Source: an uncultured Rhodobacteraceae bacterium
Lineage (GTDB): Bacteria; Pseudomonadota; Alphaproteobacteria; Rhodobacterales; Rhodobacteraceae
Reading direction: 5' to 3'
DNA: 64,000 nt
Assembly (NCBI GenBank): GCA_947503175.1
Contig: CANNCO010000006.1
Coordinates: 62,323-126,322, forward strand
The notes under the pieces were generated by a model, which was not told where the DNA came from, did no database searches, and saw only the letters and a program-made list of their open reading frames with translations. Position numbers and translations under genes: made by a program. Shown here piece after piece: positions 10,824 through 63,967 of the stretch (positions are counted from its first letter, which is position 1; each line of letters opens with the position of its first letter).

Positions 10824-11504
10824 CTACTCCGTCTCTGCCGCATCCGACAAACCGGCGGCATCGCGGATGATCACCATTTGCGCCGTATCGAAGCCGATAA
10901 TGCCGTTCTTGCGCAGTTGCGTGAATGTCCGGCTGACTGTTTCGGTTGTCAGACCAAGGAAATCCGCGATATCGGCACGCCGCATCGACAGGTGCACATG
11001 GCGTTCTCCCTTAACCTCGACACCGATCTTGTCAGACAGAACTTCGAGAAACGACGCGACTTTTTCTGTCGCCGACTTGCAGGCCAGCATCATGAAATGG
11101 TCCTGCATGGCGCAGATTTCACCCAGCGCAGCCTTCAGAAGTCGGATCCGGGTCGGATCGTCATCCGGCGCGTGTTCCAGCGCCGATCGCCGATGCGCGA
11201 CAAGCTCGGCCGTTGCGATCACGTCGCAATCGGCATGGTAGAATCTCCCGTTCGGGAATCCCACGAAATCGCCCGGATATCCGAAGGCAATGACCTGCCT
11301 CTTTCCGTTTTCAAGAACGCGTGTCAGGCGAACGACGCCGCTTTTGACTTCATAGATGTGTTCCGCTTCGTCACCTTCATGAAAGAGATTGGCCCCTTGG
11401 CGCAAAAACCGGGCACAGCCAAACGCAGGCTTGGTGTTCTTGGCTTCGGGGGGTTCCGCGGGATCACTGGTTGCACCGTAATTGTTTAGAAGAGTAACAT
11501 ACAT
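10824..11504 (-). CDS. fixK: Crp/Fnr family regulator, FixK-type
   Basis: cNMP-binding barrel and IADFLGLTTETVSR recognition helix; no N-terminal FNR Cys cluster. Likely start at 11504 (GGAG RBS); ORF-track start is 11543. Confidence 0.8.
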   Translation of the reverse strand: MYVTLLNNYGATSDPAEPPEAKNTKPAFGCARFLRQGANLFHEGDEAEHIYEVKSGVVRLTRVLENGKRQVIAFGYPGDFVGFPNGRFYHADCDVIATAELVAHRRSALEHAPDDDPTRIRLLKAALGEICAMQDHFMMLACKSATEKVASFLEVLSDKIGVEVKGERHVHLSMRRADIADFLGLTTETVSRTFTQLRKNGIIGFDTAQMVIIRDAAGLSDAAETE

Positions 11505-11579
11505 GGCATGCTCCATCTCTAAGGCCGGAGCATTCTGACTCATTCGTGTCGCACGATGTTTGCGGCGACGTAGGACATT

Positions 11580-11595
11580 TGTAACGAATTGTATC
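11580..11595 (-). promoter_or_regulatory. K-box-like site GATACA-ATTC-GTTACA upstream of fixK
   Basis: One mismatch to the GTTACA-N4-GTTACA K-box bound by FxkR in rhizobia; lies between fixK and the OmpR-type regulator. Confidence 0.7.
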
Positions 11596-11664
11596 GCTCG
11601 CTCCCGGGCTTTGGTTTTGGACGCGCACGATGCTTCGATGCGGTCTATTGCACAGGAAACAAAG

Positions 11665-12402
11665 GTGGCCGAGACACATATTCTCGTCGTTGACGATGAC
11701 CCGAAGGTGCGGGTGCTGCTGCGGCGTTGCCTGGAATCCGACGGCTATCGTGTCGGCGAGGCAACCGGGCGCGCCGGGATCGAGGCCGCCTTTCGAACCA
11801 AACCACCGAATCTCGTGACGCTCGATTTGAACCTTGGGGAAGAGAACGGACTCGATCTGGCGCGCGAGATCCGACGTGACCGGCAGGTTCCGATCATCAT
11901 GGTCACCAGCAGGGATGATATCATTGACCGGGTTGTCGGACTTGAGCTGGGTGCCGATGACTACATCACCAAGCCGTTTCATGTCCGGGAAGTTCTGGCC
12001 CGCGTTCGCAGTGTCTTGCGACGTGCCACGGCTCCCGCCGACACGACCGCCCCCGAGCCGGAGCATCGACCTGTATCTCCGGAACTGCAGCAGATGGACG
12101 ATCTGACAATCGATGTCGAACGCATGATCCTGACCGACCGGGACGGACAACCCTGCGATCTTACCACGGCAGACTTCAAGCTCTTGACGGCGTTCCTGCG
12201 CAATCCGAAGCGGCCCCTGTCGCGTGACCGGTTGATGGATCTGATCGACGGGCCGGAATGGGTGCCGCTTGATCGGACGATCGACAATCAGGTGGCCCGA
12301 CTGCGCAAGAAGATCGAGCGCGATCCTTCCCATCCAAAACTGATCAAGACCGTCCGGGGGGTCGGATACATGCTAACGGAATCAGCCGTACCGGCCAGCT
12401 AG
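11665..12402 (+). CDS. fxkR: OmpR family response regulator, FxkR-like
   Basis: HILVVDDD...LDL...KPF receiver plus wHTH (PLDRTIDNQVARLRKKIE...IKTVRGVGY); GTG start at 11665. Symbol assigned from context (hybrid FixL, FixK, K-box). Confidence 0.75.
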   Translation: MAETHILVVDDDPKVRVLLRRCLESDGYRVGEATGRAGIEAAFRTKPPNLVTLDLNLGEENGLDLAREIRRDRQVPIIMVTSRDDIIDRVVGLELGADDYITKPFHVREVLARVRSVLRRATAPADTTAPEPEHRPVSPELQQMDDLTIDVERMILTDRDGQPCDLTTADFKLLTAFLRNPKRPLSRDRLMDLIDGPEWVPLDRTIDNQVARLRKKIERDPSHPKLIKTVRGVGYMLTESAVPAS

Positions 12403-13964
12403 GTCCCACCCAGACCCGCCTGAATCGCCTCTGCCAGCGCATCGTTACGGTAAGGCTTACCCAGAACCGGAAACTCCGGCCCGACCTTGCCATCGCGTAG
12501 CAGACCCTCGGAAAAACCCGATGTGATGAGCACGCCAATTTCAGGGAACTCATCCGAGATACGGCAAGCCAGATCGTATCCGGTCATCTCGCCCGGCATC
12601 ACCAGATCGGTGAAGACAAGATCAATATCCGTTCTGCTTTGAAGGATATCCATGGCGTCGGCGGCGTTGGGCACCGACAGGCAGGCATAGCCGAGCGAGA
12701 TGAGGCGGGTTTCCGTCAGGCGGCGAATCCTAGGATCGTCCTCGACGATCAGGATAAGCTGCCCCTGGCCTCTCGACACCTTCGTTGAGGATGTCGCGGC
12801 ACTGTCCGCCGCAATGGCTCCGGTCGGATCGAGCGCGGGGAAATAAAGGCTGACCTTCGTGCCCTCTCCCGGTTCGCTATAGATCGCAAAGTGGCCTCCT
12901 GACTGCTTCACAAAGCCGTAGACCATCGACAGACCCAGCCCCGTGCCCTTGCCGGCGGGTTTTGTTGTATAGAACGGTTCGATCGCGCGGGCTCTTGCCG
13001 CCGCACTCATCCCCTCGCCATCGTCGCTGACGGTCAGCCGGACAAAACTGCCTTTCCGGAACTCGATATCCTGGGCAAGGTACCGTTCGTCGACGACCAC
13101 GTTATCGACCTCGATCATGATCCGTCCGCCTTCCGGCATCGCGTCCTGGGCGTTCAGAGTGAGATTGAGGATCGCAGTCTGCAACTGTGTGGGATCTATC
13201 ATCGCCATCCAGGCATCCTTGGCCGCAGAGAAATCGATCCGGCATTGCGGGTTTATTGTACGCCGAAGCAGGCGAATGGAGGTCTTGAGAATCTCCTCGA
13301 GATTGGTCGGCTCCGACCTGAGCGCGCTCTTACGGGCAAAGACCAGAAGGCGCGATGTCAGTTCCTCGCCCAGACCTGCGGCCTCAAGAGCATCCTTGAT
13401 CAGCGGCTTGGCGGCATCGCTGGTCTCGATTGCCTGGAGCAGTTCGAGATTACCGATGATGACCGTCAACAGGTTATTGAAATCATGAGATATTCCGCCG
13501 GTCAATTGCCCGATAGCGTCCATACGCTGAGCGAGCATCATCGCTTCCTCAGTGCTACGTTCAGGACCCAGATCGTGCAGGATCGTAACGAAAGTCGGTT
13601 CGTCCTCGATCACGGCCTCACCGACTGACAAACGCAGAGGAAAGACCGTGCCATCCTTGCGCCTGCCTTCGACATCGCGCCCGACACCGTTGGTCCGCGT
13701 CTCGTTCGTTCTTGAGTGCCCCTTTATGAACTCCGGGTGGCCGGCAGCCATGCCGCCCGGAACAAGAAGCAGCAGGTTCTCTCCGACAAGTGCATCGGCG
13801 GGATATCCGAAAAGTCGTGAAGCCGCAGAGTTGGCGCGCGTGATCACACCTGCCTTGTCCGTGACGATAATGGCATCGGCGGCCGCTTCCAGCAGCGCCT
13901 TCAGCAGCGCGGGTTCCCGGGCATCGGACAATTGGCTGGTCCCATTCATCGGCTGACCCGACAT
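12399..13964 (-). CDS. Hybrid PAS histidine kinase with receiver domain (hFixL-like oxygen sensor)
   Basis: PAS ...AGHPEFI...GVGRDVEGRRKDGTVFPLRLSVGE aligns with the FixL haem-PAS including the axial His. H-box ISHDFNNLL, GKGTGLGL G-box, C-terminal REC. Start 13964 or 13949. Confidence 0.85.
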   Translation of the reverse strand: MSGQPMNGTSQLSDAREPALLKALLEAAADAIIVTDKAGVITRANSAASRLFGYPADALVGENLLLLVPGGMAAGHPEFIKGHSRTNETRTNGVGRDVEGRRKDGTVFPLRLSVGEAVIEDEPTFVTILHDLGPERSTEEAMMLAQRMDAIGQLTGGISHDFNNLLTVIIGNLELLQAIETSDAAKPLIKDALEAAGLGEELTSRLLVFARKSALRSEPTNLEEILKTSIRLLRRTINPQCRIDFSAAKDAWMAMIDPTQLQTAILNLTLNAQDAMPEGGRIMIEVDNVVVDERYLAQDIEFRKGSFVRLTVSDDGEGMSAAARARAIEPFYTTKPAGKGTGLGLSMVYGFVKQSGGHFAIYSEPGEGTKVSLYFPALDPTGAIAADSAATSSTKVSRGQGQLILIVEDDPRIRRLTETRLISLGYACLSVPNAADAMDILQSRTDIDLVFTDLVMPGEMTGYDLACRISDEFPEIGVLITSGFSEGLLRDGKVGPEFPVLGKPYRNDALAEAIQAGLGGT

Positions 13965-14068
13965 TTGTACGCGCAAACCGCGGGATTGATCCAGCCTTTG
14001 GCCAAAGACCGCGGCCGCGCGGGCTTCCAAAGTCCGTCTATGCGACCGCTGAACATCAACAAGCCGCG

Positions 14069-14467
14069 CTAACCCCAGTTCTCGGCCATGGCCCGAAGGA
14101 TATCCGCCCGGCTGATCTGACCGACCAAGCGTCCTTCCTGAACGACCGGAAAACGGCGAAAGGTGCTGTTGATGAACGCTTCGCAGGCCGCAACGATATC
14201 CATGCCCGGATCAAGCGTGTGAACGTCATCGGCCATATAGCCCGAAACCGGCTTGCCCCATTCACGATAGTAACTGGCCTCCAACGCGGCGCGCAGACAG
14301 TCTTTCTTGGACAGGATGCCGACCAACCGGCCCGCCTCATCGACCACGGGAGCGCCAGAGATCTTGTACTTCAGCAGGACGGCCATTGCATCGTTGATCT
14401 CCTGACCGGGACTGAGCGTGATCAACTCCCGCGCCATGTAATCCGCAACGGTCGGAAGCTCGCTCAT
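14069..14467 (-). CDS. CBS domain-containing protein
   Basis: Two CBS repeats ([16 protein letters not shown]; [19 protein letters not shown]); ATGA-coupled to nqrM. Confidence 0.9.
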
Positions 14468-14637
14468 CTCCCACCCTCGCCGTCATTCCTGCGCGTACAT
14501 CCAGCACAGGCCCCTGTTTTGCCACAGGCGATACCGCCGCAGGATCCCTTGATCGGATCGCGCCCGAAAAGGACGCCGACCGCCAAACCCAGAACGGCAA
14601 GCAGTATCAGCAATAGGCTCAGAAGGAATGTTGTCAT
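14464..14637 (-). CDS. nqrM: Na+-NQR maturation factor NqrM (57 aa, below the ORF-track cutoff)
   Basis: Manual translation [57 protein letters not shown]: one TM helix, IKGSCGG motif, four Cys; follows apbE. Confidence 0.85.
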
Positions 14638-14652: not shown

Positions 14653-15609
14653 TCAGACCATGAGATGATCGGCAAAAGCGCCGGTTGTAACGGTTTCCAG
14701 TACGGCGCCACCCGACAAAAGGAAAAGAGCATCGATTCCGTGGCGGCGCGCGAAACCGGCGCCGCGTTCGCCCATGGCACAAAGGGCCGTCGCAAGCGCG
14801 TCGGCCCGCTCCGCCGTTTCCGCCAGAACCGAGACCGACGCAACCGGGGACACCGCAGAACGCCTGACGCGCGGGTCGATGATATGGCTTGTCGATACCG
14901 AACCGGTCACCCCGTTCGCGCTGTGACCGGATGTGGCAAGGGCCAGATGCCCCGGCGCCACGATGTGTCTTGCGGTGAATGCGCCCGGTGTCGGATCCTC
15001 GATGGCCACCTGCCAGCTCCGTCCGGACGGATGCTGCCCGTGGGCCCGGACTTCGCCCCCCAGTTCGATCAGGAAAGGTCCAGACAGACGCACTTTCAGG
15101 GCGTCGAACATCCGATCCAGCGCATGCCCTTTGGCGATGCCGCACAGATCGAGCGTCAGACCCGATTGCGTTTTTCTAAGCGCACCCGGAACGGCCTCGA
15201 CCTGCCCGCCGATCTCGCCATGTCCCGAAATCGGCCCAAAGCCCATCCTGTGAACCAACGGCCCGACGCGCGGATCAAACACGCCACCTGTGAAAAGCGA
15301 CATAGAAATCGCATGTTCCGCAACCCGTGCCAATGGGCCGGGAACATCTTGCCAATCGGTCGACTGGCTCCGATTGAAACGCGACAGGGCTGACTCGGGC
15401 TTGTAAGGCGACATCTGACTGTCGACCTCCGCAACGATCCGAATGATCGCCGCGCGCATCCCGGCGACCTCCGCATCTGATGTCACAACCCGCCATATGC
15501 CTCCGAAAGCCGAGCCGCCGGTAACAGCCGTGCCGGCCGATGCACCACCGGGTCCGAACGCGGCAGCCGCGGCACCTATTGTCATCATGTATCGTCGGGT
15601 CAGCATCAT
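14653..15609 (-). CDS. apbE: FAD:protein FMN transferase
   Basis: LDLCGIAKGHALD, LIELGGE, LATSG, SHIIDPR, ADALATAL; N-terminal TRR suggests Tat export. Confidence 0.92.
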   Translation of the reverse strand: MMLTRRYMMTIGAAAAAFGPGGASAGTAVTGGSAFGGIWRVVTSDAEVAGMRAAIIRIVAEVDSQMSPYKPESALSRFNRSQSTDWQDVPGPLARVAEHAISMSLFTGGVFDPRVGPLVHRMGFGPISGHGEIGGQVEAVPGALRKTQSGLTLDLCGIAKGHALDRMFDALKVRLSGPFLIELGGEVRAHGQHPSGRSWQVAIEDPTPGAFTARHIVAPGHLALATSGHSANGVTGSVSTSHIIDPRVRRSAVSPVASVSVLAETAERADALATALCAMGERGAGFARRHGIDALFLLSGGAVLETVTTGAFADHLMV

Positions 15610-15613
15610 CAGC

Positions 15614-16834
15614 CTATACTCCGAAATCGTCGTTGAAGATGCTGTCGGGCTCGACGCCCAGCTCGTCCAGCATGTGCATCACCGCCGAGATCATCATCGG
15701 CGGGCCGCAGAGATAGTATTCGCAGTCTTCGGGCGCCGGATGGTCGCGAAGGTAATTCTCAAGAGCAATCCGATGGACAAAACCGGTGGCGCCGGACCAA
15801 TCGTCCGTGGGTTCCGGATCAGAAAGCGCAACCGTCCAGTCGAAATTCTCGTGCTTTGCCGCAAGCGCGTTCAACTCATCCTCGTAGAACAGGTCTACCT
15901 TGCTGCGGGCACCGTACCAGAAAGTGACCTTCCGCCCGCTCTTCAGCCCTTCAAGCTGTTCGAACAGCATCGCCCGCAACGGAGCCATACCGACGCCGCC
16001 ACCGATAAAGACCATCTCGCGGTCGCTGTCGCGGGCCCGGAACGACCCGAACGGCCCGGCAGTTGACACCGTGTCGCCCGGGCTCAGATTGAACAGCCAA
16101 GACGATACGATCCCCGGTTTCGCGTCGCGCACCCCAGGGGGTGGCAGAGCCAGCCGGATATTCAGAACGATGCGGCCCGCAGCCGTGTCTTCTGGTCGGT
16201 TGGCGATGGAGTAGGCACGCGTTACGGGCTCGGATGTGTCCACCGAAAGCGAGCGTAGCGGTGCCCAGATGTCCGCGTGTTCGTCCGGAACCTTGATCTT
16301 GGCGTAGTCCAGCGCGAATGGCGGCGCGGTAAGCTGCACGAAAGCGCCTGCGAAAATGTCGGGGCGGCTGTCGTCGGGCAGGTCCAGAACGATCTCGCGG
16401 ATCAGCGGTGTCAGCGCCCGCACAGACGCAACCCGGCACATCACGGCCTCGGCGGCCAGAAGGTCATCGGGGACGCGCACGGCCATATCGCCGCGCATCG
16501 TAACCTGACAGGCCAGATGAACACCCGAATGAAGTTCCGATGGCGACAACCGCGCTGTCTCGATCGGCAACGGATCGGGTCCACCTTCAACGATCTGCAC
16601 CCTGCAGAGACCACACGTCCCCGCCCCGGCGCAGGCCGACGGTATCATCACACCGTTTTCGTTAAGAGCAGCCAAAAGCTTCCGTCCGGTTTCGGTCGCA
16701 ATACGGGTCGTGCCATTCAGGGTCAGTGTGGCGGGGCGCGCCGGGTTGAGAATGGCCCTGGCGGCGATCACCAAGCCCGACAAAAGCAGGATCAGAACGA
16801 TCAGAACACCGCTTCCCAGAAGGATACTGGTCAT
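15614..16834 (-). CDS. nqrF: NQR subunit F (NADH dehydrogenase, FAD and 2Fe-2S)
   Basis: TM anchor, [12 protein letters not shown]...[32 protein letters not shown]. Confidence 0.95.
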
Positions 16835-17430
16835 GGCCCCACCCCCGCAAAGGCAGAAAACCCAAGCGACATGAGGCCGGTGACCAGAAACGCGCTTGCC
16901 AGCCCCTGAACGCCATCGGGCATATTGCTGTAGCGCAGCCTTTCGCGGATCGCGGCGAAGGTGACAATCGCCAAAGCCCAGCCGACACCGCTTCCGAAAC
17001 CATAGACGACTGCTTCCAGCGGCTCATAGCGCCGTTCGACCATGAACAGGCTGCCGCCAAGTATCGCGCAGTTCACCGTGATCAGGGGCAGGAAGATGCC
17101 AAGAGCGCGGTAAAGGACCGGCACATAGCGTTCCAAGGTCATTTCGAGAATCTGCACCATGGCGGCGATGACGCCGATAAAGGCGATCAGTTTCAGAAAC
17201 GACAGATCCACGTCGGGCAGCCCCAGCCAACGCCACGCACCATCAATCAGCAAACCCTGAAAGATCAATGCGTTGACGGGAACCGTGATGCTTTGCACGA
17301 CGATCACTGCTGCACCAAGGCCCAATGCCGTTTCGACCCGCTCGGAAACCGCCAAAAACGTACAGATGCCCAGAAAGAACGACAGGGCGAGGTTCTCCTG
17401 AAAGATGGCGGCGATCAGCAGGTCGGTCAT
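16831..17430 (-). CDS. nqrE: NQR subunit E
   Basis: [18 protein letters not shown] and [13 protein letters not shown]; both Fe-S Cys present. Confidence 0.93.
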
Positions 17431-18080
17431 GACCCTGCCCTTTCACGCACCAGCGGGAACTTTGCGGGCTCTGCCTGCCGGGTCCAGTAGCTGCGGATGC
17501 CCCAGATCAGGAACCCGATGATGAAGAACGCGCTAGGTGCCAGTTGCATCAGGCCGAGCGGCTGGAACCATCCACCCTCGGAAACCGGGAGGAAAATGAA
17601 ATAGCCCAAGAGACTGCCCTGTCCCAAGAGTTCGCGTAATCCGCCGACGATCAGGAGGATCAGACTGTACCCGAGACCGTTGCCCAAGGCGTCCATGAAC
17701 GACCGCCCGGGCGGGTTGTGCATCGCAAAGGCCTCTGCCCGTCCCAGAACAAGACAGTTCGTCACGATCAGCCCGACAAAGATCGACAAGGCCCGGCTCA
17801 GTTCGAATGCAAAGGCTTGCATCAGCTCATCGATGACGATGACGAGTGACGCGATAATCGTGATCTGAACGATCAGGCGGATCACATTCGGAATGTGATG
17901 ACGCAACAGGCTGATCAGAACCGAAGACAGGCAAATCACGACCGTAAGGGCCACCGACATCATCAGCGCGGTGTTGACGGATGTGGTGACGGCAAGTGCC
18001 GAACACACGCCAAGTATCTGGCGAGTCACCGGGTTTTCGTCGATCAGCGGAGCGATCAAACGGTTCCATGCCTGTGCCAC
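17427..18080 (-). CDS. nqrD: NQR subunit D
   Basis: [12 protein letters not shown] and [14 protein letters not shown]; GTG start at 18080. Confidence 0.93.
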
Positions 18081-18081
18081 G

Positions 18082-18867
18082 CTAAAGCCCCCCGCTGCGA
18101 AGGCGTTCAAGAAACGGCCCGTAGCCGTGGGGCCCCAACCAGTAGCGCAGCATGTTGGCAACACCGCTGCCCGTCTGCGTCGCACCCGTGATTCCGTCCA
18201 CTTCGTAGGGTTTGGTTGCTTCGCCCTTCACGACCGAGATCACGATCTCGCCCGCCTCGTTCGCGACCTCCTTTCCGGGCCACAGCGCCTGCCATTCCGG
18301 GTCTTCGATCCGGGCGCCGAGGCCAGGGGTCTCGCCCTGTTCAAGGATCGTCAATGCAGCGACAGTCCGGAGATCGGCTTCCAGCGCGAGCAAGGCGCGT
18401 ATCATGGATTGATATCCCGTGCCCCGAACCGGAAGGACGACCAGTTGTACTCGGCCATTTCCTTCAAGGATGTGGACCGCCGCGTTAGGGCCTCTTTGGC
18501 CCAGTCCGGCGACGTCCAGCTCTGACGGCACCGGGACGGCGGCGTCCGGGTCACCGGCGGCCTCCATCTCATCATAGGCCGCCGGATCGTCACTCGCCAC
18601 GAACTCACCCGACGACAGATCGACCAGCCGGGTTTCGAGGTTCTCCGCACCCGCCTCTTCCAGCAGTTCCCGCATTCCCGGCAGGGTATCCAGCATCGCG
18701 GCCATCCGCGCTTCGCGCTCGGCCTCCAGATGGGCATCCTGTATGGGTTTCAGCAGAACCGACGCCGTCGAAACGACAAGGGCACACACGAAAGCCACAA
18801 TGACGGCCATCCCGATGACCTTGGCCGGGCTTTCCTTGGTTTGGGCGGTCGCCTGTGGATCACCCAT
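18082..18867 (-). CDS. nqrC: NQR subunit C (periplasmic FMN-binding)
   Basis: GETPGLGARI and VDGITGATQT flavinylation motif; start ATG at 18867. Confidence 0.92.
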   Translation of the reverse strand: MGDPQATAQTKESPAKVIGMAVIVAFVCALVVSTASVLLKPIQDAHLEAEREARMAAMLDTLPGMRELLEEAGAENLETRLVDLSSGEFVASDDPAAYDEMEAAGDPDAAVPVPSELDVAGLGQRGPNAAVHILEGNGRVQLVVLPVRGTGYQSMIRALLALEADLRTVAALTILEQGETPGLGARIEDPEWQALWPGKEVANEAGEIVISVVKGEATKPYEVDGITGATQTGSGVANMLRYWLGPHGYGPFLERLRSGGL

Positions 18868-19630
18868 GACGCAATCCCCTCTGTAACGCGTTGGCACGAA
18901 TGGCAAAGTAGTCGGCAAGCGGCGCGAAGATACTGGCAAGCAGCGACGCAAAAACGACGGCTTGCACATCAAGGCCAAAAATCCAGATCAGTGCGCCCGC
19001 CAGAATAGCATATGCGACACGCCCCGCATTCGTACTCGCCGCGGCAACGGGATCGCCGACCAGAAATACCAGCGGAAAGGCGGCAATGATCGCAACTGCC
19101 ACAATCTCATCCATTCCGACGGCAAGCCACAGAACCAGCAGGCTCGTCACCACGACCCGCCATGACAGGACGCCCATGATAAGCAGCAACGCCGCACCCG
19201 GCACCGTGGCAAGCGCCAGCGCGAGGGTCGGTTCGGGCAACGCCGTTCCAGGGAACGAAAACAGAAGCAACGCCAGCGACACAGCAGCCGCGTTCAGAAA
19301 TCCAAAGCCGCGGCCGCCGAACACCAACTCTCCAACGACTGCGCCAAGCGAGACGACAACGGCCACTTGCCAGACTGCGACATCCGCCGGGGTCAGAACG
19401 GCAAAGATCATCGCCGTCGTTATGCCTCCGGCACCCGGTGCCCCGTTTCGGACGCGCCAGAACACCGCATCCCAGAACAATGCCACCGCCGCTGCCACCA
19501 GAAAGACCCACAGCGCAGGCAATCCGCGTTCGGCAAGCACTACGGCCAGCGCAGGCAAAAGCGCAATCACCTGAACGACAGTCATGCCCAAGGCGCCCTG
19601 ACCGGCAAGAAGCCGTGCCGCAGCCGTCAT
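18860..19630 (-). CDS. nqrB: Shortened NqrB/RnfD-family membrane subunit (256 aa) lacking the SGAT FMN loop
   Basis: Retains VWQV...VFGG.GF.FLNAA, SWR, GDPV..A.TN.G, FAPLADY; the N-terminal extension and the central FMN segment are absent. Confidence 0.85.
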   Translation of the reverse strand: MTAAARLLAGQGALGMTVVQVIALLPALAVVLAERGLPALWVFLVAAAVALFWDAVFWRVRNGAPGAGGITTAMIFAVLTPADVAVWQVAVVVSLGAVVGELVFGGRGFGFLNAAAVSLALLLFSFPGTALPEPTLALALATVPGAALLLIMGVLSWRVVVTSLLVLWLAVGMDEIVAVAIIAAFPLVFLVGDPVAAASTNAGRVAYAILAGALIWIFGLDVQAVVFASLLASIFAPLADYFAIRANALQRGLRHG

Positions 19631-20829
19631 ACGGTCTGCTTTCGCAGGGTGTCCAGGACGTCACGCAGGCACTTACCGTAATCGGTCCCGCTCGTACAAA
19701 GGGCAGTAAGCGGGGCCACGTCATCCTCCAAAAGCTCAAAACATCCCAGCCGGCGTGCCGTTTCGGCATCACCCGTGCTCAGCGCACGCATCATCGGGAC
19801 GGGCAGGATATTCATAGGCAGCGCACGTTCAAGGGGCGACAATGCAAAAAGGGGCTGCGGCGCGCCCGTCCGGGCACCCGAAGCGGCACGGCGTCGATCG
19901 GTGACGGTGATCTCATCATGATGGCGGCCCAGATAGGCCGCCGGCCGCCCGCGCAACTCCGAGCCGGATATGAGGTCGGGCGGGGGATCGTCGTCATCGC
20001 TCCTGTCCTGAACGAGCACACGCAGATCAACGCCAAGCGGGATGCGCAGCACCGCCGGATCTGTGCATCGCGGCCCATGGAGCGCGACACTGCGAAACGG
20101 ATCATACCGCCCTGTGCGGAACAGATGCCCGATTGCAAGGACCTCCTGATATCCGATCGTCCAGACGCTTCGCTCCGAATGTACCGGAAAGAGCCGGTGA
20201 ACATGAGTTCCCGGCAGGCCCTGCCCATCACGATCGGGAAAATAGGATATCTTCACGGAAGAGGGGACGTCGTCCAGCGCGGGCGCACCGTTCGCCTGAC
20301 ACAAATGGACATGTCCTTTGGTCAGGGCCGCCAGCACTTCCAGACCGCGCGTCAGATCGGCGGCGCGTCCATCCATGACATTCGCCGGATGGGGCGCAGC
20401 GGTGCTCGTCCGTGTCGCCGTGACGAATATCGCGTCCGGGGACGCGTCGGGATCGGGGATACCGCCAAACGGGCGTGTGACAATGGCGGGCCAAAGCCCC
20501 CGTTCAAGCAACGTGCCGCGGATTGCGGCGGCGCTGCTATCATCGCAGGAACCTGTTTCCACCTCAGCGGAAGCGGCGGGGCCGGGCAGTATCTCGAAGA
20601 CCGAAAGCATACGCCGCGGGGCCATGCTGATGTCCCCGACGGTTCCGGAAATAGGGGAAACAAATGCGATCTCAGGGCGTTTCCTATCGCGGAAGACAAC
20701 CTGTCCGATGCTCACCGCGTCTCCGCGTTCGACTTCCTGCCGGATACGTAACTCGGAATAGTCGGCACCCAGAATACCAACGGGCAGCTCTCGCGCGTAC
20801 GTAGCTTCGCCATGCTGCGTCTCTGTCAT
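19627..20829 (-). CDS. nqrA: Shortened NqrA (about 400 aa)
   Basis: V..GD.V..GQ.VF.D.K.P.I.FVSP.SG, GLWPAIVTRPF, LGCFELLEDDVA.L..LC.SG.DYG; start ATG at 20829. Confidence 0.85.
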   Translation of the reverse strand: MTETQHGEATYARELPVGILGADYSELRIRQEVERGDAVSIGQVVFRDRKRPEIAFVSPISGTVGDISMAPRRMLSVFEILPGPAASAEVETGSCDDSSAAAIRGTLLERGLWPAIVTRPFGGIPDPDASPDAIFVTATRTSTAAPHPANVMDGRAADLTRGLEVLAALTKGHVHLCQANGAPALDDVPSSVKISYFPDRDGQGLPGTHVHRLFPVHSERSVWTIGYQEVLAIGHLFRTGRYDPFRSVALHGPRCTDPAVLRIPLGVDLRVLVQDRSDDDDPPPDLISGSELRGRPAAYLGRHHDEITVTDRRRAASGARTGAPQPLFALSPLERALPMNILPVPMMRALSTGDAETARRLGCFELLEDDVAPLTALCTSGTDYGKCLRDVLDTLRKQTV

Positions 20830-20897
20830 CTTGCCCGATTTCCGCCCTGTCTGGAGAGATTCTCCGACGAAGTTCTGCGAGGTTGGCGGGCAACTCA

Positions 20898-20911
20898 TTG
20901 AGATATATCAA
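20898..20911. promoter_or_regulatory. FNR/FixK-type box TTGAG-ATAT-ATCAA between nqrA and the cytochrome c gene
   Basis: One mismatch to consensus; centre about 75 bp from the nqrA start and about 70 bp from the cytochrome start. Confidence 0.72.
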
Positions 20912-20974: not shown

Positions 20975-22078
20975 ATGATCACCGCATTGCGCCAAAGGCT
21001 GCTTTGGCTTGTCTCGATCCTTGCACTTCTTATCGCACCAGTTGCAGCGCAAGCGCAGGATCAGGATGACGGGCCGAGCTTGTCCCAGATCGTCGATGCC
21101 TGGATAGCCTCGCCGCATGCAGACCGGTCTGCGGATGCCTTCACGCACTGGAACGAAGATGGCGAGATACCGGGCTCCTGCGCCACCTGCCATTCCGGGA
21201 TCGGATTCACCGACTATGTCAGCGGGTCGATGAGTACGGTCGGACGGATCGATCATCCGGTCCCGCTGGGCAACGTCGTCGATTGCGCGACATGTCACAG
21301 CGGAGCCGCCACGGCACTTGAATCCGTGCCGATGCTGTCCGGCGCGGTTGCCGAGAACGTCGGGTCATCTGCTGTCTGCTCTGTCTGTCATCAGGGCCGG
21401 AACTGGACGGGCTCGGTGGAGGCTGCCGTTGAAGGGCTCGGGATCGATACGGTGTCAGCCGAACTCGGTTTTGTGAACATCCACTATGCCGCCGCAGCCG
21501 CGACGCTGATGGGCGGCGATGCCCGTGGCGGCTACGAATATGCCGGCAAGGACTATAAGGGTCAGTTCACCCATGTGCCCGACTTGAACACCTGCACCGC
21601 CTGCCATTCGCCACACTCGCTCAAAGTCGAACTGACAAGCTGTTCAAGCTGTCACAGGGATGTCGCCAGCTTCCGTGACATCCGAACCACGCAGGTCGAT
21701 TTCGATGGCGATGGCGATGTCTCAGAGGGAATCGCTCGCCCGATCGCATCACTCCATGAGCAGTTGGGAGAGGCCATCGCGCTCTACGCTCGCGAAGTGG
21801 TCGGGGTGCCGGTGGTCTATGCCGCAGACAGCTATCCGTATTTCTTTGCCGACGGGGATGCGGACGGCGCGGTGTCAGAGGGCGAGGCGTCCTATCCCAA
21901 CCGCTACCAGAACTGGACCCCGCGCATGTTGCGTGCCGCCTACAACTATCAGTATGTAGCGAAGGACAAGGGTGCTTTCTCCCACAACCCGCATTATGCG
22001 CTCCAACTGCTTTACGATAGCCTCGAAGACCTGTCACAGGCTGTCGATGTGGATATCGCATCGCTGACCCGCCCCTAG
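20975..22078 (+). CDS. Periplasmic pentahaem cytochrome c (367 aa)
   Basis: Sec-type signal peptide ending AQA and five CxxCH motifs (CATCH, CATCH, CSVCH, CTACH, CSSCH); AGGAGG RBS. Confidence 0.9.
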   Translation: MITALRQRLLWLVSILALLIAPVAAQAQDQDDGPSLSQIVDAWIASPHADRSADAFTHWNEDGEIPGSCATCHSGIGFTDYVSGSMSTVGRIDHPVPLGNVVDCATCHSGAATALESVPMLSGAVAENVGSSAVCSVCHQGRNWTGSVEAAVEGLGIDTVSAELGFVNIHYAAAAATLMGGDARGGYEYAGKDYKGQFTHVPDLNTCTACHSPHSLKVELTSCSSCHRDVASFRDIRTTQVDFDGDGDVSEGIARPIASLHEQLGEAIALYAREVVGVPVVYAADSYPYFFADGDADGAVSEGEASYPNRYQNWTPRMLRAAYNYQYVAKDKGAFSHNPHYALQLLYDSLEDLSQAVDVDIASLTRP

Positions 22079-22090: not shown

Positions 22091-23272
22091 TTGGAACACG
22101 CGCTCCTGATCCTGATTCTTGGCGTCCTGTTTCTGGGTGCTCTGGCTCTCGATACGATCGGGCACATCGTCCATGTGCCTCGGGTTACACTGCTCATGCT
22201 TCTGGGGGCCCTTCTGGGCCCTCCGATACTTGATGTCCTCCCTCCGGCGCTTGCAGGCGCGAATGATGGCTTTGCCGCGGTCGCGCTGACAATGGTGGCC
22301 TTTCTCCTGGGCGGTACTCTCAAACGGGATACGCTTGCGGAGCATGGGCGCGAAATACTGATCATGTCGCTCAGCGTGGTGGGCATATCGATCCTGTTCG
22401 TGGCTGCCGGTCTGTACCTGGCTGGCATGGCCATCGTTCCGGCGCTTATCCTCGCGGCCATTTCGGCGGCGACGGCTCCGGCAGCGACGCGTGACGTCAT
22501 TCTTCAGTCAGGTCAGACCGGTCGCTTTGCGACGAACATCCTCGGAATCGTGGCGATCGATGATGCCTGGGGTCTTCTGGCGTTTAGCATCATCCTGATG
22601 GTTGCCGGTGCAATCGCAGGCGATGGGGCGGCGGCCTCGGTGCTTCACGGGGTCTGGGAGGCCGGCGGCGGCATTGCGCTTGGCGCGGCCATCGGATTTC
22701 CCGCGGCCTATCTGACCGGGCGGCTCAAACGCGGCGAGCCTTCCCTTCTCGAAGCCCTGGGCATCGTCCTCATCTGCGCCGGTGCATCGCTTTTGCTTGA
22801 GGTATCTTTCCTGCTCGCAGGCATGGTGGCGGGTGCGATTGTCGTCAACCTGGCACGTCATCACCGGTATCCCTTCCATGAAATCGAGCGGATCGAATGG
22901 CCTTTTCTACTGATATTCTTCATCATGGCGGGCGCATCTCTTGAAATCGGACTTATCGTGGAGTTCGGGGTTGTTGGCCTTGCCTATGTCACGGCCCGAA
23001 TGCTGGCTCGTGTGGTCGGCGGCTGGATGGGGGGGCGGCTTGCGCATCTCAGCGGGCAGGAAGGCATCATGACCGGGATTGCGCTGACCCCGCAGGCGGG
23101 CGTTGCCATCGGAATGGCACTCGCGGCAAGCAACAGGTTTCCCGAATACGCTGAACAGATCATGGCAATTACGATTGCCAGCACGATTATCTTCGAAATC
23201 ATCGGACCGCTTATGACACAGACGGCACTGAACCGGATGTCCGAAACAGAAGCTTCGAAGAGCGCCACTTAA
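22091..23272 (+). CDS. Monovalent cation:proton antiporter (CPA superfamily)
   Basis: About 12 TM segments, ATAPAAT, VAIDDAWG, PQAGVAIGMAL; TTG start 12 bp after the cytochrome stop. Confidence 0.88.
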   Translation: MEHALLILILGVLFLGALALDTIGHIVHVPRVTLLMLLGALLGPPILDVLPPALAGANDGFAAVALTMVAFLLGGTLKRDTLAEHGREILIMSLSVVGISILFVAAGLYLAGMAIVPALILAAISAATAPAATRDVILQSGQTGRFATNILGIVAIDDAWGLLAFSIILMVAGAIAGDGAAASVLHGVWEAGGGIALGAAIGFPAAYLTGRLKRGEPSLLEALGIVLICAGASLLLEVSFLLAGMVAGAIVVNLARHHRYPFHEIERIEWPFLLIFFIMAGASLEIGLIVEFGVVGLAYVTARMLARVVGGWMGGRLAHLSGQEGIMTGIALTPQAGVAIGMALAASNRFPEYAEQIMAITIASTIIFEIIGPLMTQTALNRMSETEASKSAT

Positions 23273-56961: not shown

Positions 56962-58076
56962 AGGGCCGCGTCATCGCAATCGACGATGGTGGCCGAAGGG
57001 CGGCCCTTGTCGTCGACGGTCGGCTCGAAGACCTGATAATCGCACCGTCGGGCAAGGATTCCGCCACCCTGCCAGGCACGATCCAGATGGCCCGGGTCAC
57101 CCGCGTCCTGCCCAACGGTCGCGGTGCGTTCTGCACGACCGATGCCGGAACCGAAGGGTACCTGCGCGACGCCAAGTCGCTGAAGCAGGGCATGCGGATC
57201 AAGGTCCAGATCGTCAGCCTCGCCGGTGCGGGGAAAGCCGTGCCGATGACGACGCGCGTTCTCTACAAGGGTCCGCGCCTGATCCTGACCCCGAACGCAC
57301 CAGGCATCAACGTCTCCCGCCGGATCGGCAACCTGGCGGAACGCGAACGTCTTGAGACCGTCGTGACGAAGGCGCTGGCCGGATCGGATGTCGATGAGGG
57401 AACCGCGGGAGTGATCATAAGGTCTGCCGCGCGGGGAGCCGAGGAACAGACACTTTCGTGCGAACTCTCAATTCATCTGCGCCGCGCCGGGCTGACTGGG
57501 GAACAGAACGACCTGCTCGCCGATCCGTTATCTGAAATGCTGCGGGACTGGCTGGACCCCCTGCCCGACGAGATTCTGTGTCACACCGATCTGGCCGGTT
57601 CCCTGGCCGAGATCGGCTCCGATAACGGCCCAACCCGTCTTTGGGGCGATGACAGGCTGCCCTCACTTCTGAAGCCGCATCCCGCCCCCTTCGAAGCTTC
57701 CGGCGCCGGCGATCAGATCCGCAAGCTGCAAAGCCCGATCGTGTCCTTCAGCGAAGGCTCCATGATCATCGAATCCACCAGCGCCTTCGTTGCCGTCGAT
57801 GTCAACACGGGCGCAGACTTCAGTTCCGCCGCCGGGCTGAAAGCCAACCTAGCGGCCATTCGCGATCTGCCCCGGCAACTTCGCCTGCGCGGTCTGGGCG
57901 GGCAGATCGTCATCGATTTCGCCCCGGTTCCAAAGGCCCAGCGCCGGACGATGGAAGAGGCGCTGAAAAAGGCGTTCCGCTCCGATCCCGTCGAGACGGC
58001 CCTGGTCGGCTGGACGAATATGGGCCTCTATGAAGCCCAACGAAAACGCGAACGCCTGCCCACCGGAGGGGCCTGA
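56958..58076 (+). CDS. Short ribonuclease E/G family protein
   Basis: S1-like N-terminus, [26 protein letters not shown]; ATGA overlap with maf. Confidence 0.88.
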
Positions 58077-58080
58077 CAAG

Positions 58081-58272
58081 ATGAACTGTCCGATCTGCCA
58101 GAAACCGCAGTCCAAGGCGTATCGCCCGTTCTGTTCAGGCCGCTGCGCCGACGTGGATCTGGGGCGCTGGATGTCGGGCAGCTATGCCATCCCGGACACC
58201 GACCTCCCGTCGGACGAAACACCACGCGGCACACCGGAAACGGATGCGCGCCATCCCCCGGAAAAGCCCTGA
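58081..58272 (+). CDS. yacG: DNA gyrase inhibitor YacG
   Basis: MNCPICQK....YRPFCSGRCADVDLGRW. Confidence 0.93.
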   Translation: MNCPICQKPQSKAYRPFCSGRCADVDLGRWMSGSYAIPDTDLPSDETPRGTPETDARHPPEKP

Positions 58273-58348
58273 GTTTTCCTCCCATAAACACTGGACAGCA
58301 CCCCGCACCGGGTCTAGAAGACGCTCCGACAGGTCCGCATGGTCCTGC

Positions 58349-58423
58349 GCCCGGGTAGCTCAGGGGTAGAGCAGTGGATTGAAAATCCTCGTGTCGGTGG
58401 TTCGATTCCGCCCCCGGGCACCA
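58349..58423 (+). tRNA. tRNA-Phe (GAA)
   Basis: Cloverleaf GCCCGGG...CCCGGGC-A-CCA, anticodon loop TTGAAAA, GTTCGATT T-loop, encoded CCA. Confidence 0.97.
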
Positions 58424-58489
58424 TTTTTCAAAATAATAACAGTACCTTGCTGGTATTCGCCGTTTCTAGGCGATGTGTGGATTTTGAGC

Positions 58490-58508
58490 TGGGTGCCGTA
58501 TGGGTGCC
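58490..58508 (+). repeat. TGGGTGCC-gta-TGGGTGCC direct repeat (putative integrase arm-type sites)
   Basis: 11-bp period, about 66 bp from the tRNA 3' end; flanked by a second repeat TTGCTGGTATT at 58447-58457 and 58512-58522. Confidence 0.55.
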
Positions 58509-58573
58509 ATGTTGCTGGTATTGCAAATTTCGGCTGTGCTTTCGAGGTATGCACAACTTGGTTCGAACTCAAA

Positions 58574-59224
58574 CTATTGAAAGTAATTGGGTAGTTCAGA
58601 CTTCAGGCGGTCTAGGTCCCAGAGGGGATCGACATAAGGGCACTGATAGTTGGGACCCAAATTTTCTGTCTCTGCGTCTTTGAAGAACGATCTGGCCGCT
58701 TCGTGAGACTCTTCTGGAATTACCAAGAATGCAACATCAGCGGGCTTAAAGTCGATGTTGTTCGCGACACGCCACTCGCGCTCCCAATCAAAGAGGTACT
58801 TTGATTTTCCATAGATTCCTGGAGCATCGATGAATGGAGCAATCTGCCAGAATGGGTTTGAACCGTCAGATTCTGCTTGATCTCTAAGTTGCAAGACGGC
58901 CTTGTGCTGGGGTGAATCTTTGTAGGCATAAAGAATGGGGCCACCTCCCACAGATTGTATGAAATCCTTGGTGAAAACTATCCCATAGGGGCTTTCCCTC
59001 TCTGCAGACAAGCGACCGATCTGGTGCAAAGGTATCTCACTCAGACAAGCAGAAGGCACACAATGCTTGCTCTTTCGCGCAAAACCATACCTCGCCTTAG
59101 CCTCAATCCGTTGCGAAGAAAGGATGCCCATCATCTTGTCGTAAGCTGTTTTCTTGCCCTTACCGTCCGAGAAGTGCACTAACCACGGCGACATGTCTTC
59201 CCAGCTTTTCTTCAAGTGGCTCAT
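58574..59224 (-). CDS. AbiGi-like / ADP-ribosyltransferase-fold protein
   Basis: LVHFS, CLSEIPL, YGIVFTK, GGGPILY, DWEREWR pattern. Confidence 0.6.
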   Translation of the reverse strand: MSHLKKSWEDMSPWLVHFSDGKGKKTAYDKMMGILSSQRIEAKARYGFARKSKHCVPSACLSEIPLHQIGRLSAERESPYGIVFTKDFIQSVGGGPILYAYKDSPQHKAVLQLRDQAESDGSNPFWQIAPFIDAPGIYGKSKYLFDWEREWRVANNIDFKPADVAFLVIPEESHEAARSFFKDAETENLGPNYQCPYVDPLWDLDRLKSELPNYFQ

Positions 59225-59303
59225 GATACGATCCTATGGCAATTGCTCTAAAAAATGATCAACCAGTACGCGTCTAAGAAACCGAAGCATTGAAAAAATG
59301 GGA

Positions 59304-60710
59304 CTAGGCAGTCGGCAAGTATTGAGACGTGGAACACACCACAATCCTCTTTGCACCTCGTGTCAGCGCAACATACAGGTTCTTTGCATCCATTCCTTGC
59401 GTGTCGACCAATACAACCTGATCAGCCTCCAAGCCTTTCAGTAAAAGAGTGCTACCGACAGACCTCTTTCCCAAAGCACGACTATGGAAACGTCGTTCTT
59501 CTCGCGCCTTGAGGACCATGTCAGAAAAATCTTCTGCAGTTTCGGATGAATGCAATGCTTTCAGCAGATTCCTGAACACTTCCCCTCTGAAAGCCGAAAC
59601 ACCTGACTGATTGCTTAGCGCCGACAACAACGCAGCAGCCTTCTGGGGGGTTTTGTCAGCGTCGAAGGCTAAGGCCGCTGTTTCAGCATCGGTCGCCTCA
59701 TTCCGGTTGGTACCTGCCTTTAATGACGAAAGGCGTGAGATCATTTCAGTCGCGTTGATGCCACGAAGAATGCTTGCTGCTTCTCTGAGCAAAGCAGAAG
59801 TGGCATTGGCCGCGGTGAAGTCAAAGCGACTTGCGAAATCCACAAGGTCAGTCAGATCAGCATTCTCCACAACGGAAGCACCCTTGGTCTTCTGTGCAAT
59901 TTGTTGCTGTCGCTGACGGTTTCTGCTGCTGCAAATAATCAAAGAGCTCTCGATACCCTTCGGCATACCGTGAGTTGCCGCGAGTATCTTTTCGAAATCT
60001 TGATCTCCCGAGATAGGGGTCCATTCGAGTTCAGGGGGAGCGCTCTTTAGGTCGATTTGGCCACCACTCACGAGAGTTGGCCGCACGCTCAATAGCCATA
60101 GGCCTAACCTCCCTGCTCCAGCTTGGTTCCATCGCCACGGCGTGGCCAATTCAGCCACAAGAGGAAAGTCACGAAGTACCTCGGTATTCCAATCAACGGT
60201 AGTGTCACCGAAATCAAAAATACCTTGGAGGACATCGCCAAAGATGCATGTTGGCAAGACCCGCGCCAGTTCGCACAATATGGCATGCTGAGTTTGCAAG
60301 CAGTCTTGGTATTCATCAACGAGAAGGCGAGAGTAGTTGGCCAGAAGCAAGTTGTCGATGTGCTGGCCCTTCAGCAAATGAAGAACTGCATTCTTGATAG
60401 CTGGATAGTCAGTTCCGGGATTAGATAGTTCCAAAATCGATGGGTCAGCAGCGCTTCTCATTGGAAACATGCCGACCATTCTCATGGCCCACCCATCAAT
60501 TGTCGCGAGACGATAGTTGGACCTAGGAACTTCGCCTTTGTCTAACCTCTGCCTGAGCGCGGCGACTGCCGCATTCGTGTGGGTTAGCACAAGAATTGGC
60601 TTCTGGTCTGTATTGCGCTTCAAACTATCTGAAATTAGATGAGTTTTACCGCAACCGGCAGGAGCTTGTATGCACCCTCGAGCAATTTGTAGGGGATCAG
60701 GCTCGGTCAT
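59304..60710 (-). CDS. gajB: UvrD/Rep-like helicase, Gabija GajB
   Basis: APAGCGKT, LTHTN.A, VDEYQD, FGD.LQGIF, KGLEAD, LYVALTRG; overlaps gajA by 14 bp. Confidence 0.85.
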   Translation of the reverse strand: MTEPDPLQIARGCIQAPAGCGKTHLISDSLKRNTDQKPILVLTHTNAAVAALRQRLDKGEVPRSNYRLATIDGWAMRMVGMFPMRSAADPSILELSNPGTDYPAIKNAVLHLLKGQHIDNLLLANYSRLLVDEYQDCLQTQHAILCELARVLPTCIFGDVLQGIFDFGDTTVDWNTEVLRDFPLVAELATPWRWNQAGAGRLGLWLLSVRPTLVSGGQIDLKSAPPELEWTPISGDQDFEKILAATHGMPKGIESSLIICSSRNRQRQQQIAQKTKGASVVENADLTDLVDFASRFDFTAANATSALLREAASILRGINATEMISRLSSLKAGTNRNEATDAETAALAFDADKTPQKAAALLSALSNQSGVSAFRGEVFRNLLKALHSSETAEDFSDMVLKAREERRFHSRALGKRSVGSTLLLKGLEADQVVLVDTQGMDAKNLYVALTRGAKRIVVCSTSQYLPTA

Positions 60711-62427: not shown

Positions 62428-62521
62428 AATACAGGCCCCCAGAATAAGTACACCCCTGCAACTTAACCGCGAACGCAAGGGAACCTAAAGGACATTCTTA
62501 GACCAGGATCTGCCGAATTCC

Positions 62522-62544
62522 CGAGGCCACGAAACATGGCCTCG
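62522..62544. other. 8-bp stem-loop CGAGGCCA-cgaaaca-TGGCCTCG
   Basis: Between the 66-aa gene and gajA; no U-tract on the coding strand. Confidence 0.4.
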
Positions 62545-62566
62545 CGAAACTCTGTTTGGAAATGTG

Positions 62567-62767
62567 CTAACTTGAAAGCACTTTTCTTGCCTCCTTCTCG
62601 GCAGCTGATCCCTTCACCCATTGCCACGGTGTGCGTGGCTTGCGTGCCTTCGCCAGTTCAGGGTTTGCCTTAGCATCGCTGACGGCAGCGCGTAGCTTTT
62701 CGCGAGCCTCGCGAGCGTCGATCTTCAGTTCTGCGCAAAGGGCTTTCAGCGTGACGATGTCGGACAT
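62567..62767 (-). CDS. Small basic hypothetical protein (66 aa), possibly HTH-like
   Basis: AGGAG RBS; TLKALCAELKIDAREAREKLR helix pattern and a W.W motif. Confidence 0.7.
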   Translation of the reverse strand: MSDIVTLKALCAELKIDAREAREKLRAAVSDAKANPELAKARKPRTPWQWVKGSAAEKEARKVLSS

Positions 62768-62881
62768 GTCGATCTCCTAGATTTCTGATGCAGATCGATA
62801 AGATGAGGTGGGCAGGCTTGTCAGGGACAACCCCATCGACCGGGGCTGATGGATTCTGGAGCGAAGCCCGCCAACTGGTTT

Positions 62882-63580: not shown

Positions 63581-63967
63581 TATAACAATTTTGGCAACCG
63601 AAAGTCATGCATCCATGATCCCGCGAGACACTGATCAGATGTCGATTGCCCTGTCCCTCAGCCTGAGCATGACAGGTCGTCTACTCAGATTCACACTGAG
63701 CGTCAGACTCTGCGCGCCGCGATAGCGTTAACCGCGCCTGCTGCTAAGCCCCAGTAGGTAGAGCGATAGGCGCACGTGGCCGCGTTGTATTGAGCCAGCA
63801 GGACGTGTGACCGGCATTCGTGACATATCCAGCCCGACGCAACACCGAGCCTGACACTGGCCCTTGTGCGCCGCGCAGGCAGGTACCTCACCGGGAAATA
63901 CCCTGACGACCGCTGCTGCCCGATCTTATTGCGCTGTTACGACTGCAATCAGTGAAAGGAGATCGCA

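Follow-up and report, generated by a model that had tools for sequence, protein, structure and literature searches.

What becomes of an electron-transport complex when one of its subunits loses the site of its covalent flavin? This question is raised by a stretch of 64,000 nucleotides from an uncultured Rhodobacteraceae bacterium (contig CANNCO010000006.1, positions 62,323 to 126,322), referred to below, at its whole length, as the window. It carries an operon for the NADH:quinone oxidoreductase that pumps Na+ (NQR), in which nqrB (18860..19630, minus strand) is an open reading frame (ORF) of 256 amino acids (aa) that has the NqrB/RnfD membrane fold and from which four canonical segments are gone. 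NQR is a four-flavin NADH:quinone Na+ pump and, to our knowledge, the covalent flavin mononucleotide (FMN) of NqrB is regarded as universal in NqrB and RnfD. The short NqrB is confirmed here as real and conserved, and is the NqrB of a distinct, conserved NQR lineage that is found mostly in marine and sediment Alphaproteobacteria. The change affects the whole complex, beyond one trimmed subunit, because residues of the quinone site and acids of the proposed Na+ channel are also lost and the operon is tied to a cytochrome c, a CBS-pair protein and an FNR-type promoter.

The window NqrB matches the Pfam family PF03116 (NQR2_RnfD_RnfE) with 93 bits (cut-off 27.7) and lies below the equivalog cut-offs for NqrB (87 vs 414 bits for NF003756; 74 vs 350 bits for TIGR01937) as well as for RnfD (58 bits vs a cut-off of 207 for TIGR01946). 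Its equivalog match consists of two separate stretches, and the alignment with V. cholerae (Vc) NqrB (7xk3_B, 415 aa; canonical NqrB proteins have about 400-415 aa) likewise gives two blocks: residues 42-128 correspond without gaps to Vc 132-218, and residues ~137-256 to Vc ~275-413. Vc residues 219 to ~270, with the covalent-FMN site DGYSGAT236 and PGSIGE274, have no equivalent. At this site the sequence FSFPGTALPEP is directly joined to the next helix, and the scar can be placed at the codons of residues 128-136 (G-T-A-L-P-E-P-T-L; 19223..19249, minus strand), where canonical NqrB has about 50 residues including SGAT (Thr236) and GSIGE. When the protein is aligned by MAFFT with canonical and intermediate relatives, the 159 absent residues resolve into four deletions, namely the N-terminal amphipathic (quinone/inhibitor) helices (~45 aa), the loop between transmembrane (TM) helices TM1 and TM2 (~47 aa), the FMN loop (~50 aa), and a late loop of the 'NPMMTMPWYWH' type (~14 aa). 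The initial annotation, made from the letters alone, had noticed that [S/T]GAT is missing, that FSFPGTALPE runs straight into the next helix, and that the N-terminal quinone/inhibitor stretch is absent. All of this is borne out by the alignment, in which the motif has gone together with its whole loop and 41 residues precede the helix equivalent to that of E144, compared with 131 in Vc NqrB.

The tetrapeptide [ST]GA[ST] is not found anywhere in the window NqrB. Of 80 relatives found by a protein search (203-289 aa; 36-56% identity), to which all residue counts out of 80 below refer, six contain the tetrapeptide. These occurrences, two of them in near-identical sequences, fall at five unrelated positions and are thus chance matches. 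Filing the protein as RnfD, the name given to some members by the annotation pipeline PGAP, was rejected on the NqrA/NqrF context, on the absence of RnfB and RnfC from the operon, and on the scores.

The missing segments are not hidden nearby. The nqrA stop and the nqrC start are separated by only 771 nt, all filled by the nqrB ORF, and tblastn searches of the 64-kb window with canonical NqrBs, with their FMN loop and with their first 120 aa gave nothing significant beyond the two segments within the gene itself; a hidden segment or frameshift was rejected on these grounds. Logan contigs from three independent runs span the deletion site as well as the junctions with nqrA and nqrC; they show single-nucleotide polymorphisms (SNPs) and zero indels, and the SNPs within nqrB comprise five synonymous changes and one non-synonymous. 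The frameshift or assembly error that might have undone the initial annotation is excluded by these observations. The gene overlaps both of its neighbours, nqrA by 4 nt (ATGA) and nqrC by 8 nt (ATGGGTGA), as had been stated; the overlaps had also been described as in frame, which is incorrect, for the genes lie in different frames at both junctions and the overlaps are of the coupling kind.

The short form is widespread. A scan of one genome per species found short NqrB in at least 118 GTDB species, nearly all Alphaproteobacteria (Rhodobacteraceae/Paracoccaceae, Hoeflea, Hyphomicrobiales, Ahrensia, Devosiaceae and Aurantimonas), cultured strains included. In all loci long enough to judge, it lies within a syntenic nqr operon. 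A profile search of 1.84 billion cluster representatives (50% identity) listed 150 matches, 148 of them long enough to analyse; a loop of 6-18 aa is present at the deletion site in 91 of the 148 (about 91 clusters), and SGAT is present there in none. Four of these 91, proteins of 671-692 aa (P0242, P0250, P0263 and P0264) in which short NqrB forms the C-terminal 260 residues, look like NqrA-NqrB fusions, either true ones or gene calls that read through the ATGA junction.

Selection was measured on 27 close pairs, the values over all pairs having been discarded as dS was saturated. The dN/dS of NqrB is 0.175, comparable to that of NqrA (0.17) and ApbE (0.16). These two NQR subunits, NqrB and NqrA, are the least constrained; NqrD (0.09), NqrF (0.08), NqrC (0.07) and NqrE (0.03) are tighter, and the cytochrome discussed below has a value of 0.08. 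NqrD values with dN > 1 and NqrD column counts are alignment artefacts of the overlapping nqrC and nqrD ORFs, and motif counts were used instead. The AlphaFold (AF2) model of the window NqrB, with a mean predicted local-distance score (pLDDT) of 92 and a predicted TM-score (pTM) of 0.90, confidently predicts the NqrB/RnfD fold. Foldseek matches this model to NqrB chains with E ~1e-10 to 1e-11 and query-normalised TM-scores of 0.72-0.75, and to RnfD with TM-scores of 0.75-0.79. The initial annotation had proposed selected streamlining in place of pseudogenisation, and the number of species, the syntenic operons, the dN/dS and the confident fold uphold that proposal.

In canonical NQR, electrons run outward from NqrF through NqrD/E to the FMN of NqrC and return to ubiquinone by way of NqrB, through its FMN and its riboflavin (PMC10643135). 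The residues of NqrB that serve this return were followed through the relatives, with roles taken from PMC10643135 and PMC9293633. R61 (Vc R151) and G108 (Vc G198; 80/80) are invariant, and F189 (Vc F342), listed with them, is counted in 79/80; together with F185 (Vc F338; 64/80) it represents the F338/F342 gate. T72 (Vc T162) is kept in 62/80. The acids of the TDPV and PLxD motifs were said at the outset to remain, and this is correct, D346 being represented by D193 and D397 by D240, each in 78/80. The EG motif, by contrast, had been called missing, and an acid is in fact present at the E144 position (D54; E or D in 62/80). Two positions have become invariant or nearly so, R107 (Vc T197) in 80/80 and R204 (Vc K357) in 78/80. 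The quinone site of V. cholerae uses G141, F159 and the N-terminal helices (PMC10643135); in the relatives G140-G141 are replaced by A/L and F159 by G. N200 is replaced by G in 70/80, and the N203 position (residue 113) is S in 42 and N in 27. The V. cholerae double mutants N200A/D346A and N203A/D346A lose riboflavin (PMC9293633). Finally, D52, E157 and E273/E274 are described as strictly conserved acids at the entry and exit of the Na+ path proposed for NqrB (PMC10643135), and no conserved acid is found at D52 (region deleted), at E157 (W/F/L/A) or at E274. The three-part loss of the FMN threonine with its loop, of the quinone-site helices and of the quinone-site residues indicates that the covalent FMN site and the quinone site of NqrB are gone and that the riboflavin pocket is only partly eroded. 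The sequence argues against a quinone site of the canonical kind in NqrB.

The loss was stepwise. The nearest longer relatives, P0259 and P0265 (379 aa), read DGFAGTAPL and EGSPAARPL in place of the canonical DGFSGATAL; their N-terminal helices are already gone and the other loops are present. P0254 (310 aa) lacks two segments and part of the FMN loop, and P0081 (289 aa) lacks three segments, so that NqrB intermediates without the threonine span 289-379 aa. Redox function seems to have been lost first and the shrinkage to have followed, because the 379-aa forms have already lost the threonine and still have the other loops. What is lost stepwise is the output half of NqrB; the core fold and a few buried residues are kept.

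The remainder of the operon presents the opposite picture, its input and pump half (NqrF, NqrD/E, NqrC, ApbE and NqrM) being intact and strongly constrained. The genes stand in the order nqrA-B-C-D-E-F-apbE-nqrM-CBS, all on the minus strand, with ATGA-type overlaps at most junctions, and are translationally coupled. NqrC (18082..18867; 261 aa; 174 bits, cut-off 144), the periplasmic FMN carrier, has the flavinylation site D-G-I-T-G-A-T. Nearly all of 77 relatives have [ST]-G-A-[ST] at this site, the last position being Thr or Ser in 75. NqrD (17427..18080; 217 aa from a likely GTG at 18080; 268 bits, cut-off 245) has the cysteines that bind the intramembrane 2Fe-2S cluster, together with the gate Leu and the D133 equivalent. 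The longest nqrD ORF reaches 18185 and shares about 100 nt with the end of nqrC; the GTG at 18080 lies one base after the nqrC stop, and the spurious extension misled NqrD alignments based on tblastn. NqrE (16831..17430; 199 aa; 288 bits, cut-off 248), the most constrained product of the operon, keeps its Cys, its gate Leu and the E95 equivalent. NqrF (15614..16834; 406 aa; TIGR01941 436 bits, cut-off 295) combines a 2Fe-2S ferredoxin domain with a domain for flavin adenine dinucleotide (FAD) and NADH. The NqrC motif, the Cys of NqrF and NqrD/E, the gate Leu of NqrD/E and the equivalents of NqrE-E95 and NqrD-D133 are conserved throughout the family. NqrA (19627..20898; longest ORF 423 aa, 400 aa from the likely ATG at 20829) has its full architecture, with 248 bits vs a cut-off of 321, and is about 30 residues short at Vc 329-367.

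Behind nqrF lie apbE (14653..15609), for an FAD:protein FMN transferase whose client in this operon is NqrC alone, and two small genes that follow apbE in 65 of 66 loci. The first (14464..14637) encodes an NqrM-like protein of 57 aa with one TM helix and a Cys-rich tail (GSCGG...C..C); with 21 bits against a PF04400 cut-off of 22 it falls just under the Pfam threshold and is readily missed by gene callers. The second (14069..14467; 132 aa), the last gene of the operon, overlaps nqrM by ATGA and encodes a CBS-pair protein, which is 48-74% identical among the 65 loci. This gene is also found in the longer lineage without the threonine, where the L086 locus (the source of P0265) carries the same operon including the CBS gene, followed by a monohaem cytochrome c gene. 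The CBS-pair gene is specific to this nqr operon lineage, and its product may be a nucleotide-sensing regulatory subunit. We know of no such gene in the nqr operon of V. cholerae.

A cytochrome gene stands on the other side of nqrA. Divergent from the operon, it encodes a five-haem c-type cytochrome (20975..22078, plus strand; 367 aa from the ATG at 20975) that has a signal peptide ending in AQA, five invariant CxxCH motifs, eight more invariant His residues and two DxDGDG loops, and whose NCBI family name is 'polyheme membrane-associated cytochrome C'. Pfam and NCBIfam searches gave generic c3/c7 signals, and a sequence search of the PDB gave spurious antibody matches only. Among the 69 loci with 2.5 kb or more of sequence upstream of nqrA, 58 have a five-haem homologue (47-69% identity) in this position. 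This count was corrected by tblastn; a count from ORFs alone misses L020, L029, L033 and L059, in which the maximal ORF overran nqrA. Four more loci have other ORFs of 2-6 haems upstream of nqrA, two of them (L030 and L071) beside flavoproteins with a twin-arginine (TAT) signal, and in a fifth (L005) a six-haem ORF lies some 4 kb upstream, past two TAT-signal flavoproteins. No multihaem ORF was found in 551 kb of flanking DNA. Sampling from the side of the cytochrome gave a consistent result, two of three homologues adjoining the same nqr operon. The cytochrome is proposed to be the periplasmic redox partner of the NQR.

Between nqrA and the cytochrome gene, the divergent promoter region (76-145 bp) contains an FNR/FixK-type box, TTGAGATATATCAA (20898..20911). 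A perfect TTGA-N6-TCAA occurs in 49 of 58 homologous intergenic regions, compared with 1.6 expected from the flanks. This suggests that the nqr operon and the cytochrome gene are co-regulated through the shared box.

Taken together, the operon is an NQR operon by its six-subunit context, with an NqrB that departs from the canonical protein in score, in the FMN threonine, in the quinone site and in the channel acids. The reading preferred here, to which we assign about an even chance, is that of an NQR induced at low oxygen in which the return route through NqrB to quinone has been discarded, electrons leaving from the FMN of NqrC to a cytochrome c and NqrB persisting as a scaffold. At low oxygen, NADH would be oxidised and its electrons passed from FAD to the 2Fe-2S cluster of NqrF, to that of NqrD/E and to the FMN of NqrC, crossing the membrane on the way. 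They would then exit from this periplasmic FMN to the multihaem cytochrome c and on to a periplasmic acceptor, with no return through NqrB to quinone. NqrB, together with NqrA, would be a cofactor-poor scaffold and a docking site for NqrC. The exit at the NqrC FMN appears the simplest interpretation because an intact outward half is combined with a dismantled return half and with cytochromes that are recruited and apparently co-regulated. In V. cholerae the T236Y variant, which lacks the FMN of NqrB, has a disrupted electron flow (PMC12901251). Uptake and release of Na+ are assigned to the redox cycle of the NqrD/E 2Fe-2S cluster in this 2026 V. cholerae study, whose structures and simulations, together with an RNF report cited there, place the Na+ path at that cluster (PMC12901251). 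Pumping of Na+ would persist in the window enzyme if, as in this model, the NqrD/E redox cycle moves Na+. The more specific proposal of an FNR-controlled, probably Na+-pumping NADH:cytochrome c oxidoreductase, built on the NqrF-D/E-C half, bypassing the quinone pool and delivering to the five-haem cytochrome, is made tentatively and is held to be somewhat less probable than the general reading.

Several observations weigh against an exit at NqrC. Most residues of the riboflavin pocket are kept (T162, G198, F342, D346, and S or N at the N203 position in 69/80), N200 being the only clear loss, and a non-covalent flavin with some route to quinone is therefore possible. NqrA is kept under purifying selection, and its known role is only at the NqrB/quinone side. 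A 2023 model places the Na+ path in NqrB (PMC10643135); combined with the lost channel acids, this model implies an uncoupled enzyme that may not pump. The five-haem cytochrome itself is modelled by AF2 with a pLDDT of 60, and below 50 in the haem-binding half, and Foldseek found no match to it in the PDB at E < 1. A cytochrome gene is missing near nqrA in at least five loci whose upstream sequence is long enough to judge, and the third of the homologues sampled from the cytochrome side (L091) adjoins only a cation/proton exchanger gene, with no nqr within 9 kb. Gene neighbourhood indicates a functional link and does not prove direct electron transfer or its direction. The only RNA trace in the family is a single metatranscriptome contig, which covers nqrA.

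The alternative that survives best, which we nevertheless consider rather unlikely, is that the complex is still an NADH:quinone oxidoreductase, with three flavins. The FMN of NqrC would dock in the place vacated by the FMN of NqrB and reduce a riboflavin bound non-covalently in NqrB, which would in turn donate to quinone at a remodelled site; the cytochrome would be a side branch or merely a co-regulated neighbour. The pocket for such a riboflavin is largely kept (T72, G108, F189, D193, and S/N at 113), the retention of NqrA under selection would be explained, and an AlphaFold-multimer model of a two-subunit Nqr/Rnf-like system has FMN docked on the non-covalent flavin site of a domain without the threonine (PMC11334425). 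However, all three quinone-contact positions are altered and the site has lost the N-terminal helices that would close it; Gly at the N200 position is unfavourable in view of the riboflavin-free V. cholerae double mutants, and the conserved, co-regulated and varied cytochrome c genes are left unexplained.

Less probable again is a complex that runs in reverse, in which cytochrome c would donate to the FMN of NqrC and a Na+ (or H+) gradient, assisted by an exchanger, would drive NqrD/E and NqrF to reduce NAD+, as RNF does in nitrogen fixers. RNF is reversible (PMC12174285), about 36 loci have a gene for a CPA-type exchanger after that of the cytochrome, and the neighbourhood evidence is neutral as to direction. 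The carriers, however, are mostly heterotrophs that make NADH directly, control of the FNR/FixK type suits the disposal of reductant at low oxygen better, and among the genes conserved in the cluster none encodes a periplasmic electron-donor oxidase. It is very improbable indeed that the short gene results from an assembly deletion, hides a frameshift or is a pseudogene that drifts in a dying operon: NqrB and NqrA are the least constrained subunits and both score under their equivalog cut-offs, but there is no spare DNA between nqrA and nqrC, independent runs agree, one architecture is shared by at least 118 species, dN/dS is far below 1, R61, R107, G108 and F189 are counted as invariant, the fold is predicted with confidence, and short NqrB occurs in apparent NqrA-NqrB fusions.

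With an exit from NqrC to cytochrome c, the complex would be an NQR as far as NqrC and would beyond this point resemble the RNF/MmcA system of Methanosarcina acetivorans or the one-way Nqr/Rnf-like systems. With canonical NQR (V. cholerae NqrABCDEF, ApbE and NqrM; PDB 7XK3, 8A1T) it shares the same six subunits in the same order, apbE and nqrM. NqrC, NqrD, NqrE and NqrF score above their equivalog cut-offs and have every cofactor ligand, and NqrB keeps its core fold, D346, D397, the F338/F342 gate and the E144 acid. It differs in an NqrB of 256 aa instead of 415, without a covalent FMN site, without the N-terminal quinone helices, with altered quinone-contact residues, without D52/E157/E274 and with N200 changed to G, and further in a shorter NqrA, an extra CBS gene, a divergent five-haem cytochrome and an FNR/FixK box. 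The RNF of M. acetivorans is likewise a pump of the RNF/NQR type with a recruited multihaem cytochrome, MmcA, which is thought to take electrons outside (PMC12174285). It is, however, driven by ferredoxin through RnfB/RnfC, has no NqrF or NqrA, is archaeal and carries its cytochrome inside the operon. In the two-subunit Nqr/Rnf-like systems an NqrB-like domain without the threonine is accompanied by a flavinylated NqrC/RnfG-like partner and ApbE, in what is proposed to be a one-way path from NAD(P)H to the outside (bioRxiv 10.1101/2021.01.07.425746; PMC11334425). These are fusions of NqrB-like and NAD-binding (PF00175) domains, mainly from Actinobacteria and from the Candidate Phyla Radiation (CPR), and have no NqrA/D/E/F, whereas the window has a full six-subunit operon with no fusion, in which electrons would cross through NqrD/E instead of NqrB. 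The NapC/NirT/CymA quinol dehydrogenases, which also pass electrons to periplasmic multihaem cytochromes, are comparable by analogy only, being unrelated proteins that draw on quinol instead of NADH and pump no ions. A search of the literature, in which subscription journals are thinly covered so that absence is unproven, found no published account of this operon type.

If the proposed exit is correct, it would be a new route from NADH to cytochrome c, bypassing both quinone and the bc1 complex and common among marine Rhodobacteraceae, Hoeflea and Hyphomicrobiales. The lineage would also provide a natural test of the Na+ route, through NqrD/E or through NqrB, as the FMN site and channel acids of NqrB are gone and the gates of NqrD/E are kept. 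The proteins are at present annotated as NqrB, RnfD or hypothetical, and metabolic reconstructions that count a quinone-reducing NQR may be wrong.

Some neighbouring features deserve mention. Twelve nucleotides after the cytochrome gene lies a gene for a CPA-type cation/proton exchanger homologue (22091..23272, plus strand; 393 aa). The exchanger gene adjoins the cytochrome gene at a distance of 1 nt in L091, and the two genes may form an independent unit. A longer cytochrome homologue (577 aa, L081) adjoins a gene for a NapC/NirT-type quinol dehydrogenase, a partner that delivers electrons from the membrane, and this counts in favour of the link between the NQR and cytochrome c. The small cytochromes of 4-6 haems in L005 (4405-8220), L030 (5089-7323) and L071 (505-2542), loci that lack the five-haem gene, are accompanied by TAT-signal flavoproteins of 515-536 aa, which by appearance are of the fumarate-reductase/flavocytochrome type and may be alternative periplasmic acceptors.

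Near-consensus boxes, TTGAT-N4-ATCAA, number seven in the window compared with 1.5 expected, the others lying at 965, 24590, 27245, 32134, 46813 and 60306; this number hints at a regulon for low oxygen in the region. The box has a candidate reader in a FixK/FnrL-family regulator (10824..11543, minus strand) located 3 kb beyond the operon, a loose association. The region 10824-14030 encodes, together with this FixK/FnrL-like regulator, a PAS hybrid histidine kinase and an OmpR-type response regulator. A similar trio of kinase, regulator and Crp-type protein is found near the operon in six or seven loci: within about 4 kb in L015, L022, L040, L048 and L051, at about 10-13 kb in L031, and weakly, without a Crp-type match, in L050. 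Finally, the last 6 kb of the window (58001-64000) have a G+C content of 0.51, down from about 0.61-0.64, and may be horizontally acquired.

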